From NCBI GenBank assembly GCA_938034555.1, contig CALHLT010000022.1, forward strand, positions 11,372 through 75,371: a stretch of 64,000 bases of DNA, in the 5' to 3' direction. Position numbers and translations under genes: made by a program. Positions within the stretch are counted from its first letter, which is position 1. The number at the start of each line of letters is the position of its first letter. This DNA comes from an uncultured Bacillota bacterium (GTDB lineage Bacteria; Bacillota; Clostridia; Christensenellales; UBA1242). Positions 35,062 through 62,967 of this stretch are shown here, in pieces. The notes beneath the pieces were generated by a model. The model searched no databases. It was not told where the DNA came from and worked only from the letters and a program-made list of their open reading frames with translations.

Positions 35062-35244
35062 AACAATAGAATCCCTTTCGACCATTCCGGATTTGTTTAA
35101 CATGGGAAAATTTATTAAAAATTCTTCTTATGAATGGCAATATTTAACAAACAATATTAAATTGGCTGTGTTAATTATTGTTATTAAAAGGAGGATTTAT
35201 TTTTTTATCTTACAGCTGAAAAAATAAATTTAAGGAGAAAATTT

Positions 35245-35793
35245 ATGAAAGTGCTTATAGCAACAAAAAACCCAGGAAAAATTCAAGGAGCAAAAAGAGC
35301 GTTTGAAAATTTCTTCGAAAACGTTGAAATTGAAGGAATTTCCGCCCCTTCCGATGTTCCAGAGCAACCTCTTAACGAGGAAATTTATCAAGGGGCAAGA
35401 AACAGAGTTAACAACCTTATTGCTCTTGCAAAGGAAAGGGGAGTTAAAGCGGACTACTTTGTTTCAATTGAATCGGGAATAACAAACAAACTTGGAAAAT
35501 GGATGATAACAAACATTGCCGTTGTTAAGGACAAACATGGCTATGAAAGCGTTGGAACAAGCGCAAGTTTCCCAGTTCCAAACAAATATGTTAACGACAT
35601 CATCGAAAACACCCTTGCAACCGTTATGGACAACATTTTTAACGAAACAGATTTAAGAAGTTCAACAGGCGGAGTTGGTCTTTTAACCCACGAAAAAATA
35701 ACAAGAATTGACCTTAACACCCAGGCTTTCACAATGGCTTTAACTCAATTCGTAAACAAAAATTCTTGGCGCGACAGCGATATGCAAATGTAA
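35245..35793 (+). CDS. inosine/xanthosine triphosphatase (YjjX / DUF84 NTPase family)
   Basis: MKVLIATKNPGKIQGAKRAF N-terminus and the length typical of YjjX-type NTPases. AAGGAG is present. Confidence 0.75.
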   Translation: MKVLIATKNPGKIQGAKRAFENFFENVEIEGISAPSDVPEQPLNEEIYQGARNRVNNLIALAKERGVKADYFVSIESGITNKLGKWMITNIAVVKDKHGYESVGTSASFPVPNKYVNDIIENTLATVMDNIFNETDLRSSTGGVGLLTHEKITRIDLNTQAFTMALTQFVNKNSWRDSDMQM

Positions 35794-60247: not shown

Positions 60248-60276
60248 TTGACAAATGATTTTTTTTGGCATATATT
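60248..60276 (+). promoter_or_regulatory. promoter of the asnA leader transcript
   Basis: TTGACA (60248-60253), 17 nt, TATATT (60271-60276). Confidence 0.65.
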
Positions 60277-60303: not shown

Positions 60304-60387
60304 ATGTTTCAATTATTAATCAATAACAATAATAATTCAAACAGCGCACAAAATTGTGGGTTTCTTTTTGTTGTTGATTTAATTTAA
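60304..60387 (+). CDS. 27-codon Asn-rich leader peptide (MFQLLINNNNNSNSAQNCGFLFVVDLI)
   Basis: AGGAG (60294-60298) lies 5 nt before the ATG. Seven of the 27 codons are Asn, including five in a row (60322-60336). It lies between the promoter and an intrinsic terminator upstream of asnA. Confidence 0.5.
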   Translation: MFQLLINNNNNSNSAQNCGFLFVVDLI

Positions 60388-60415
60388 AAAAACAAATTAA
60401 ATAATTAGATAAATT

Positions 60416-60449
60416 AACACCTTTGGAACCCCCCGAAAGGTGTTTTTTT
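60416..60449 (+). terminator. intrinsic terminator (attenuator) in the asnA leader
   Basis: AACACCTTT(GG) / (CC)gAAAGGTGTT stem with a C-rich loop, followed by a T-run. Confidence 0.75.
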
Positions 60450-60475
60450 AATTTCAAAAAAAGGAGTAATGCAAA

Positions 60476-60538
60476 ATGAAAAAACAAGCAAATGCCGTAG
60501 CGGGCGATGGAAATAATATTTTGCATTTAAGGATTTAA
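60476..60538 (+). CDS. second mini-ORF (MKKQANAVAGDGNNILHLRI)
   Basis: AGGAG (60462-60466) lies 9 nt before the ATG. The ORF has an Asn-Asn pair at 60512-60517, and its 3' end lies inside the 5' arm of the following hairpin. Confidence 0.3.
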   Translation: MKKQANAVAGDGNNILHLRI

Positions 60539-60565
60539 TTAAAAAATAAATTTGTCCTTAAATGC
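60523..60565 (+). promoter_or_regulatory. 11-bp hairpin whose 5' arm mimics the asnA RBS region
   Basis: GCATTTAAGGA (60523-60533) pairs with TCCTTAAATGC (60555-60565). The 3' arm is also complementary to ATTTAAGGA (60612-60620), which overlaps the asnA SD. Confidence 0.5.
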
Positions 60566-60628
60566 GTTAAAAAATAATTAAAAAATATAAAAAACAAAAA
60601 TAAAAAAACAAATTTAAGGAGAAATTTT

Positions 60629-61624
60629 ATGAAATTTATTAAAGAAAAATATGCTTATTTAAGCATGGCAGACAAACAAAAATATATTAAAATAATTAAA
60701 GACAAATTTGAAAGAGAACTTGCAAAACAACTTGATTTAATTCGTGTTTCGGCTCCACTTCTTGTAACGCAAGAATCTGGGCTTCAAGACGATTTAAGCG
60801 GCGTTGAAAGAAAAGTTTCGTTCGACATTTTGAAAGACGGAAAAGAACTTGAAATTGTTCAATCGCTTGCAAAATGGAAGCGCTATGCGCTTAAAAAATA
60901 TGGAATTCCAACCCACAAAGGAATCTACACCGATATGACAGCAATTCGTCGCGACGAAAAACTTGACGAAATCCATTCTGTTTATGTTGACCAGTGGGAT
61001 TGGGAAAAAGTTATTGAGCGCGAAGATCGAACTGTTCAATATCTTAAACAAACTGTTAAAAAAATTGTTAAAGCAATTATTGCAACAGAAAAATATCTTA
61101 AAAAAGACGGGCTTGAACTTGCGCATCTTTCCGATAAGGTGTATTTCATAACAAGCCAAAAACTTTTGGATTTATATCCAACTTTAACACCAAAGCAACG
61201 CGAATATGAAATTGTTAAGAAATATAAAACAGTTTTCATAATGCAAATTGGCGACGATTTATCCGATGGTTTCCCACACGACCTTCGCGCGCCAGATTAT
61301 GACGATTGGAAATTAGACGGCGATTTAATGTTCTATCATGAAGTTTTGGATATGGCGCTTGAAATTTCAAGCATGGGAATTCGCGTTGATAAAGAAAGTT
61401 TGCTTTCCCAACTTAAAAAATCGAAAAAAGAAGAAAGACTTGCGCTTGACTATCATAAATCAATCCTCGACGAATCCCTTCCTTTAACAATTGGGGGAGG
61501 GATTGGACAAAGTCGACTTTGCCAACTTCTTCTTAGAAGAGCGCATATTGGCGAAGTTCAAGCGTCCTATTGGGACAAAGAAACCCTTGAAGATTGCAAA
61601 AAGAAAGAAATTGAATTGCTTTAA
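60629..61624 (+). CDS. asnA: aspartate--ammonia ligase (asparagine synthetase A)
   Basis: 331 aa, AsnA-type class II-like fold (...LIRVSAPLLV..., DWEKVI, GGGIGQSRL). AAGGAG lies 7 nt before the ATG. Confidence 0.9.
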   Translation: MKFIKEKYAYLSMADKQKYIKIIKDKFERELAKQLDLIRVSAPLLVTQESGLQDDLSGVERKVSFDILKDGKELEIVQSLAKWKRYALKKYGIPTHKGIYTDMTAIRRDEKLDEIHSVYVDQWDWEKVIEREDRTVQYLKQTVKKIVKAIIATEKYLKKDGLELAHLSDKVYFITSQKLLDLYPTLTPKQREYEIVKKYKTVFIMQIGDDLSDGFPHDLRAPDYDDWKLDGDLMFYHEVLDMALEISSMGIRVDKESLLSQLKKSKKEERLALDYHKSILDESLPLTIGGGIGQSRLCQLLLRRAHIGEVQASYWDKETLEDCKKKEIELL

Positions 61625-61667: not shown

Positions 61668-61797
61668 ACATCCATAAAGAGTGTGCGAGGGACAGCCCCG
61701 TTGACCACACAGCAACCTGCAAATTGCAAGGTGCTAATGGCTGACCGATGGGGAAAAATCAATATCAAAAATCCTGTCGGAAACGATGGGATTTTTT
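61668..61797 (+). promoter_or_regulatory. SAM-I (S-box) riboswitch with a terminator expression platform
   Basis: Conserved S-box elements are present: AAGAG, GAGGGA, AGCCCCGTTGA, GCAACC, and GGTGCTAA. The terminator at 61767-61797 is AAAAATCCTGTC / GATGGGATTTTT. The 3' P1 strand GATGGGG can alternatively pair with TCCTGTC. Confidence 0.85.
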
Positions 61798-61839: not shown

Positions 61840-62967
61840 ATGAAAAAAACAAAAGAAAAAGATGCTTCAAAAGAAGCAAAACATATGCGCCAAATTATAA
61901 CAAGCGAAAGCGTTAACATTGGTCATCCCGACAAAACTTGCGACTATATTGCCGATTCTTTCCTTGACGCGGCTCTTTCTCAAGACCCAAATTCGCAAAT
62001 GGCAGTTGAATGCGCAATTAAAGATAACAAATTGTTTATTTATGGAGAAGCAACAACAAAAGCAAAAATTAACTACAATTCAATTGCAAAATCAATTCTT
62101 AAGGAAGTTGGATATAAAAATAAATTCAAAATAATTAAGGAAATAAGCGAGCAAAGTCCAGACATAAATCAAGCAGTTGTTCGCGAAGAACTATGCGCAA
62201 ACGACCAAGGCATTGTTTATGGATATGCAACAAATGAAACAAAAGAATTTATGCCTTTGCCAATTTTAGTTGCTCATAAAATTATGAAAAAATATGAGGA
62301 ATTTCGAAAAAAGCGAAGTGATTTTTTCGCCGACGCAAAAAGCCAAGTTTCGGTTGAATATGAAGGGAACACGCCAAGAAAAATAACAACCGTTCTTGTT
62401 TCCGTTTCCCACGCCAAATCGCTTACATTAAACGAAATTCAAACCATAATTCAAGAAAATGTTTTAAACGAAGTTATGAAGGAATATAAAACCCTTGCAA
62501 AAAAGACGAATTACATTATTAATCCAAGCGGAAAGTTCACAATTTGGGGCGCGCAAGGTGATTCCGGATGTGTTGGGCGCAAAATTGTTGTTGACACCTA
62601 TGGCGGCGTTGGGCGCGTTGGAGGGGGATGTTTTTCAAGCAAAAACGCAACAAAAGTTGATCGTTCGGGCGCATATTATGCGCGTTATGTTGCAAAAAAC
62701 ATTGTTGCCCACGGCTTTGCAGACAAATGTGAAATTCAAGTTGCCTATGGAATTGGACTTTCAAAACCAATTGCAATTAACATTGAAACTTTTAACACAG
62801 AAAAAAAACCGCTTAAACAAATTTATAAGTATGTTGAAGAAAACTTCGATTTCAGCCTTTCAAATATAATTATCGAGCTTGATTTACTTAAACCAATTTA
62901 CAAGCAAACAGCCTGCTATGGACATTTTGGAAGGCAAGAATTCACATGGGAAAAAAATAAACCATAA
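61840..62967 (+). CDS. metK: S-adenosylmethionine synthetase
   Basis: TSESVNIGHPDK and the typical MetK core. The start may instead be ATG 61885, which would remove a 15-aa K/E-rich extension. Confidence 0.95.
   Translation: MKKTKEKDASKEAKHMRQIITSESVNIGHPDKTCDYIADSFLDAALSQDPNSQMAVECAIKDNKLFIYGEATTKAKINYNSIAKSILKEVGYKNKFKIIKEISEQSPDINQAVVREELCANDQGIVYGYATNETKEFMPLPILVAHKIMKKYEEFRKKRSDFFADAKSQVSVEYEGNTPRKITTVLVSVSHAKSLTLNEIQTIIQENVLNEVMKEYKTLAKKTNYIINPSGKFTIWGAQGDSGCVGRKIVVDTYGGVGRVGGGCFSSKNATKVDRSGAYYARYVAKNIVAHGFADKCEIQVAYGIGLSKPIAINIETFNTEKKPLKQIYKYVEENFDFSLSNIIIELDLLKPIYKQTACYGHFGRQEFTWEKNKP

Follow-up and report, generated by a model that had tools for sequence, protein, structure and literature searches.

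The window analysed here is a 64,000-nt stretch of contig CALHLT010000022.1 from an uncultured Bacillota bacterium of the Clostridia, and the regulated gene discussed below is asnA, encoding aspartate-ammonia ligase (60629..61624; TIGR00669 above cut-off), which follows a leader with two short open reading frames on the same plus strand. The leader begins at a sigma-70/SigA-type promoter (60248..60276), whose −35 and −10 boxes match 11 of 12 consensus positions around a 17-nt spacer, and a TTGACA-type box is visible at the matching place in relatives of this leader. Next comes ORF1 (60304..60387; 27 aa), whose run of Asn codons is the sensor of a first, transcriptional attenuator, and then the intrinsic terminator of that attenuator (60416..60449), recognized by sequence and fold as a 9-bp stem with a U-run. 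The second frame, ORF2 (60476..60538; 20 aa), has a Shine-Dalgarno (SD) sequence at 60461..60466, with an SD-like sequence standing before ORF2 in nearly all relatives, and reads as Met, two to six variable codons, the core NAVAG[E/D] (60491..60508) and an Asp/Asn-rich tail. The core contains a 4-bp mini-hairpin with a 6-nt loop (60493-60506), and the Asn-Asn pair of the tail (60512..60517) is the proposed stall site that would keep the following segment free.

Downstream segments provide for alternative pairing. Segment A (60523..60533) duplicates the asnA SD region as a decoy beneath the last ORF2 codons; segment B (60548..60565) consists of an anti-SD (60555-60565) and a 5' extension (60548-60553); and segment C (60612..60627) holds the asnA SD (60616-60621) with its spacer, predicted to be sequestered by B in the off state. 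Segment D (60468..60477), formed by the spacer and start of ORF2, pairs with 60518-60527 (helix D:A') and competes with A:B. A preliminary description of this DNA had located ORF2, its SD and the Asn-Asn pair, and had proposed perfect pairings of 11 bp for A:B and 9 bp for B:C, all of which our analysis confirmed. A:B has 11 Watson-Crick pairs (60523-60533 with 60555-60565), or 13 counting flanking G-U, and the B:C core (B with 60612-60620) continues beyond one G-G mismatch into six more pairs (60548-60553 with 60622-60627). This extension, which the earlier account had missed, brings B:C to about 15 bp and covers the asnA SD and most of the spacer. The same account had held that the A:B hairpin is not a terminator, and we likewise rejected a second transcription attenuator there, as the hairpin is followed by no U-run on either strand and is absent from the terminator scan.

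Rfam covariance models gave no match in the leader up to an E value of 10. A repeat or mobile element was rejected because the leader is single-copy in the genome and only AT-rich and RBS-like fragments match elsewhere. One such stretch, 32 nt at about 35219-35250 before an unrelated gene, is 94% identical to the asnA RBS region and probably reflects a shared strong-RBS pattern. Among alternative frames, a 15-aa ORF from 60469 has an SD spacing of 2 nt, and a 68-aa minus-strand ORF (60320-60526) was rejected as without support. Beyond asnA, an ordinary SAM-I riboswitch (RF00162, 54.9 bits; 61669-61754, plus strand) lies ahead of metK (61840-62967).

ORF2 is a conserved element largely confined to one family of gut Clostridia. 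Combining a search for the NAVAG codon pattern with a search for asnA genes, we found it at 38 loci, 37 in 14 genera of this family and one on a metagenome contig, the named relatives being uncultured gut Clostridia MAGs (e.g., UMGS2070). The gene asnA itself is present in 55 of 401 family genomes, and the NAVAG[E/D] codon pattern occurred in 27 of 301 family genomes, the control scoring 1, and most matches were ORF2. At all 38 loci an ATG lies in frame with the motif, offset from it by 9, 12, 15, 18 or 21 nt, and ORF2 combines its own RBS with a frame conserved across these five spacings upstream of the regulated gene. Searched genomes contain one copy of the element, rarely two. At order level outside the family, 30 inspected pattern matches lay mostly within long frames, unlike leader ORFs; a set of 158 asnA leaders, nearly all of them from other families, contained no NAVAG-like ORF; and the motif was not found in viral contigs.

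The genes behind this leader are asnA, asnS (L250, L251) and, in L249, a non-discriminating aspS followed by gatA, which ties the leader to asparagine supply. In G260 a full two-ORF Asn leader also precedes a 261-aa protein without NCBIfam match (L252:2388-3173, minus strand), a candidate for either an Asn-related gene or a captured leader. A poly-Asn ORF1 lies upstream of ORF2 at 35 of 35 loci with sufficient flank, which is consistent with the two-layer design, transcriptional and translational, already suggested for the window. More distant asnA genes of the family (L009, L020, L240, L244-L246) have other Asn-rich leader ORFs without NAVAG, so that ORF2 has a narrower distribution than the first attenuator. 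By eye, L004, L005, L048, L051 and L052 show a second terminator after the first, between ORF1 and ORF2; in L051 the 5' arm of this second terminator complements the 3' arm of its predecessor, such that one antiterminator might disable both.

The pairing potential of A, B and C exceeds that of shuffled sequence in the window and, for the anti-SD, in half of the ORF2 loci. Helix energies in the window are −15.0 kcal/mol for A:B, −11.6 for B:C and −5.7 for D:A', and A:B and B:C each reach p ~0.01 against shuffles. Across the 38 ORF2 loci, the anti-SD is significant (p ≤ 0.05 against shuffles) in 19 and both A:B and B:C in 13, while the asnA leaders without the motif yield a significant anti-SD in 4 of 21, two of those four carrying a derived ORF2. 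Inspection finds mutually exclusive A/B/C helices, one of them sequestering the downstream SD, at about 21 of the 38 loci, and about 17 are without them. In a MAFFT alignment of 18 switch loci, 92% of B:C cells and 83% of A:B cells are paired, compared with 27-68% in slid registers, and RNAalifold returns B:C and the mini-hairpin from this alignment unprompted. Three A:B pairs have changed on both sides and only one in B:C, where the SD is fixed and therefore limits such change. Covariation is nevertheless modest, the observed score being reached by 16-57 of 500 shuffles, in a set of loci that are kin and were chosen for their pairing. The conservation and covariation by which the preliminary description proposed to check A, B and C are thus present in part, as compensatory changes in A:B and as segments kept at about 21 loci, and together the alignment and covariation support the A:B and B:C structures, short of proof.

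Are these features regulatory at all, or are they a product of chance or a decaying remnant, such as an RBS duplication or the truncated start of a gene? A chance origin is favored by the AT-richness of the region, by the abundance of SD-like words in the genome and by the 27 of its 509 SD-led long frames that have an equally strong anti-SD match, though only 5 of them also have an equally strong decoy. Conservation and the pattern search point the other way: ORF2 is kept across 14 genera in which AsnA is ~68-79% identical (among loci outside the closest pair) and the surrounding spacers are poorly alignable, and the motif recurs, with the same leader, before different Asn genes. On this comparative evidence the chance reading appears largely refuted, and we consider it extremely improbable. 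The computational analysis establishes the parts of the switch, their conservation, their pairing potential and their geometry.

In the absence of ribosomes, the switch of the window is predicted to fold into its off state. At equilibrium 98% of the ribosome-free RNA would form B:C, a default that holds in the window's lineage because segment D competes with A:B. The preliminary description had equated A:B formation with a free asnA RBS; the fold model agrees, with the qualification that ribosome-free RNA here rests in B:C, owing to segment D. Segment D is significant only in L001, L002, L040 and L229, with one compensatory change, and was on that ground rejected as a universal fourth arm. Several loci carry a further helix, L:E, between the loop of A:B and a segment 3' of B, whose sequences are very different yet complementary between lineages. 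It is significant in 8 of 21 loci (L042, L048, L051, L052, L053, L060, L228 and L005) and weak in the window (p 0.09); with A:B it would make an H-type pseudoknot in the on state.

The positions of the Asn codons and the stop codon of ORF2 relative to A suggest the direction of the response. The distance from the last tail Asn codon to the core of A downstream is 7-23 nt, mostly 13-16, in 19 of 20 switch loci, which puts cognate codons at the switching position, and the ORF2 stop also falls within −10 to +17 nt of that core in 19 of 20 loci; L005 keeps A/B/C but has no tail Asn. With this geometry a ribosome stalled at Asn leaves A free and a terminating one sits on it. We folded the window with ribosomes modelled at successive positions, varying the 3' edge of the footprint (+11, +13, +15). 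At edge +11, P(A:B) was 0.68-0.99 when the first or the second tail Asn codon occupied the A site; with the first tail Asn there, it was 0.98 at edge +13 and only 0.32 at +15. Once the A site reached Ile15 or beyond, P(A:B) fell to ≤0.03, in line with the earlier proposal that a ribosome at the end of ORF2 would melt A:B and release B. That proposal had left the direction open, since a stall at the Asn pair would partly cover A; in our model the core of A stays free and asnA would be on. We therefore infer that asnA is on under Asn shortage and off under plenty.

The resulting mechanism may be outlined as follows. When Asn is plentiful, ribosomes would run through ORF2 and occupy A at the last codons and stop, A:B would be melted, and B would pair with the asnA SD and spacer and block asnA initiation; in the window's lineage, D:A' would also hold ribosome-free RNA off. 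When Asn-tRNA is short, a ribosome waiting at the Asn codons would mask the partner of D and leave the core of A free, and A:B could then form and open the asnA RBS. Translation of ORF2, stalling at Asn and switching in vivo are what we infer from this arrangement, and NAVAG is the probable point at which the ribosome is slowed or trapped within ORF2. Overall, ORF2 with A/B/C is probably, though far from certainly, a ribosome-dependent translational attenuator that senses Asn-tRNA in tandem behind the poly-Asn transcription attenuator. Judged by its sequence, the switch combines three features typical of leader-peptide attenuators of translation: a conserved short ORF with its own RBS, cognate codons at the switching position, and mutually exclusive helices, one of which hides the downstream SD.

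Several observations qualify how such an attenuator would work. Beside the Asn run of ORF1, the two Asn codons of ORF2 make a poor sensor. In the window model the on state is also favored by an initiating ribosome (P about 0.85), and many relatives have A:B as the stronger helix; repression must therefore hinge on the flux of ribosomes and on kinetics. At equilibrium, no clear switch emerges from the ribosome walk in many relatives. Asn occupies 51 of 145 tail codons (35%) in switch loci, 20 of 42 (48%) in long or overlapping ORF2s and 9 of 39 (23%) in the rest, and the Asn-rich tail is thus kept mainly where ORF2 can reach the RBS.

The A/B/C arrangement is only one of several outputs within the family, and the decoy/anti-SD/SD model proposed for the window appears to hold at about 21 of the 38 loci with an in-frame ORF2. 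Several ORF2s end on or near the RBS. In L041, L237 and L252, a long ORF2 rich in Asn has a 4-nt overlap with the downstream start codon, which could mean RBS occlusion or translational coupling, for which opposite directions are predicted. In L007 and L008, a derived ORF2 lies about 120 nt upstream of asnA with the anti-SD beneath its last Asn-containing codons, and the loop letters of the mini-hairpin are kept in another frame, inside a weak alternative stem. Direct masking of the anti-SD would give the same direction of response in these two.

NAVAG is the invariant part of ORF2. The preliminary description had pointed to the Asn-Asn pair; this pair is retained here as the proposed stall site, but the invariant core is NAVAG[E/D], whose Asn is present at 38 of 38 loci, and about ten short ORF2s without a visible route to the RBS still keep it. 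The mini-hairpin begins in the third base of this invariant Asn codon, and its stem is paired in 148 of 148 cells, with one compensatory change and two kinds of one-sided change. Substitutions were counted on an AsnA tree of 33 loci that is poorly resolved, which makes the counts approximate. The Ala and Gly codons that form the stem changed once and never, respectively, at their third positions; for 27 Ala/Gly/Val codons that are invariant in asnA, the figure is 7-17. In the loop, first and second codon positions show 0-2 changes and third positions 6-7, as in coding sequence. Conserved residues with free synonymous sites, as expected of an arrest peptide of the TnaC/SpeFL/ErmCL type, are thus found in the loop codons, and the stem codons are fixed at the nucleotide level. 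This pattern indicates that the 18 nt of NAVAG[E/D] are constrained both as peptide and as 4-bp hairpin. They may amplify a stall or act as an arrest device, stabilize the 5' end against RNase J or bind a protein.

Such double constraint raises the question of whether the NAVAG core itself is the trigger, as an arrest peptide or a peptide-plus-hairpin device, with A/B/C as just one readout. The ribosome might stall on a free metabolite (Asn, Asp or ammonium), or a stall at the single invariant Asn might be amplified, for example by the mini-hairpin folding in a vacant A site. Besides the invariance of the core, the fixed third positions of its stem and the pairing of all stem cells, this reading draws on the uncommonness of the NAVAG codons in the window's genome and on the ribosome walk, in which a stall with the NAVAG Asn in the A site models as on (0.75-0.78); stalls within A-V-A-G, however, model as off. 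Known arrest motifs mostly work close to the C terminus of a longer chain within the tunnel, whereas this motif starts only 3-7 codons after Met, and the retention of the loop letters out of frame in L007 and L008 also speaks against this reading. Docking of stem-loops in the ribosomal A site has been reported (PMC7282821), but the published examples stimulate frameshifting and are not 4-bp hairpins. We regard NAVAG as the trigger as unlikely. Rather unlikely, too, in our estimate, is a device dual-coded as peptide and 4-bp hairpin that traps ribosomes at low Asn or Asn-tRNA, with outputs that differ by lineage: the decoy-SD switch, pseudoknotted or not, direct occlusion of the RBS and possibly mRNA protection.

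The short, uncoupled ORF2s that retain SD and NAVAG would be explained if ORF2 acted mainly on mRNA stability, a loaded or paused ribosome just 3' of the terminator protecting asnA transcripts that read through it against RNase J, a 5' exonuclease, with A/B/C as a secondary addition. RNase J is encoded in the window's genome, and initiating ribosomes block RNase J1 on the B. subtilis hbs mRNA (PMC5737220). We find this explanation improbable, as it requires a processed 5' end and leaves both the decoy/anti-SD geometry and the need for a specific sequence unaccounted for. The mini-hairpin might instead be the site of an RNA-binding regulator or a transcription pause or loading signal, the reading frame being incidental. 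By eye it resembles the ops element, it is conserved at the nucleotide level with a compensatory stem change, and the out-of-frame loop letters of L007 and L008 would fit. Nonetheless, the frame is held across five spacings, the loop shows a coding pattern, and copies are few, one per searched genome and rarely two. The genome of the window (95% complete) has a single NusG-family gene, with no RfaH/LoaP-like paralogue found, and neither Rho nor Rae1 (PF05991), a nuclease that depends on the ribosome, was found in it. For want of these partners, an ops/RfaH-type site, a Rho-based reading and a Rae1 cleavage ORF of the B. subtilis S1025/bmrX type were rejected, and we hold a protein or pause site to be highly improbable. 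The tandem attenuator thus remains our preferred reading of ORF2.

Characterized systems offer partial parallels for this attenuator. In the rtpA (anti-TRAP) leader of the B. subtilis at operon, the SD becomes accessible when the ribosome stalls and is blocked by a ribosome that has reached the leader stop. As proposed for our leader, a Firmicute there senses one uncharged tRNA through transcription and translation in tandem, and ribosome stalling controls translation of the next gene. The at operon combines T-box antitermination with leader-peptide control of translation (Chen & Yanofsky 2003, 2004, refs 21-22 in PMC10327191). The differences are that the amino acid is Asn here and Trp there, that the first layer here is a leader-peptide attenuator and there a T-box, that the leader here would act at a distance via a decoy SD and an anti-SD, although some relatives' leaders end at the RBS, and that the NAVAG hairpin is extra. 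The mycobacterial poly-cysteine leaderless sORFs (Ms5788A) likewise relieve SD sequestration of a biosynthesis gene by a stall at cognate codons when the amino acid is short, for which two consecutive codons can suffice (bioRxiv 10.1101/834739). There the stalled ribosome covers the anti-SD, an arrangement that L007 and L008 may resemble, whereas in the window the decoy must stay free to capture the anti-SD; moreover, ORF2 is SD-led and stands as a second attenuator behind another.

The alternation of D:A' plus B:C with A:B in the window matches the four-segment layout of ermC/ermCL (and cat). In ermC the default 1:2 and 3:4 helices hide the SD and a stall gives 2:3. The trigger there is an antibiotic-dependent arrest peptide, and segment D here is limited to a few lineages. 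Salmonella mgtCBR resembles our leader in having two short ORFs, mgtM and mgtP, one of which senses charged tRNA by cognate codons (PMC3641672), but both act on transcription and sense different signals, and genes and sequences are unrelated. The actinobacterial LEU element before leuA also combines a predicted leader ORF with SD-sequestering and pseudoknot alternatives, except that its codon run pairs directly with the SD; codon mutations reportedly had no effect on regulation (PMC1262725), a result that calls for caution about Asn-codon sensing here. No sequence shared with rtpA, Ms5788A or ermC was found, nor was any description of an Asn leader peptide or of the NAVAG motif in a literature search whose coverage excluded most subscription journals.

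On the sequence evidence, the asnA leader carries a real, conserved second regulatory layer with one odd component, NAVAG. Asparagine genes in Firmicutes are usually under T-box RNA control. The window's genome encodes AsnRS, and no T-box match was found anywhere in this 95% complete Clostridia genome; its own asnS has no leader and directly follows aspS. The family appears to use a two-tier ribosome sensor for asparagine in place of the T-box, and tandem transcription and translation sensing of one tRNA has few characterized precedents, B. subtilis rtpA among them. The 38 natural variants present one sensor ORF wired to several outputs in a compact module, and NAVAG, constrained as peptide and as RNA, offers a specific candidate for a ribosome-stalling element of a new kind.
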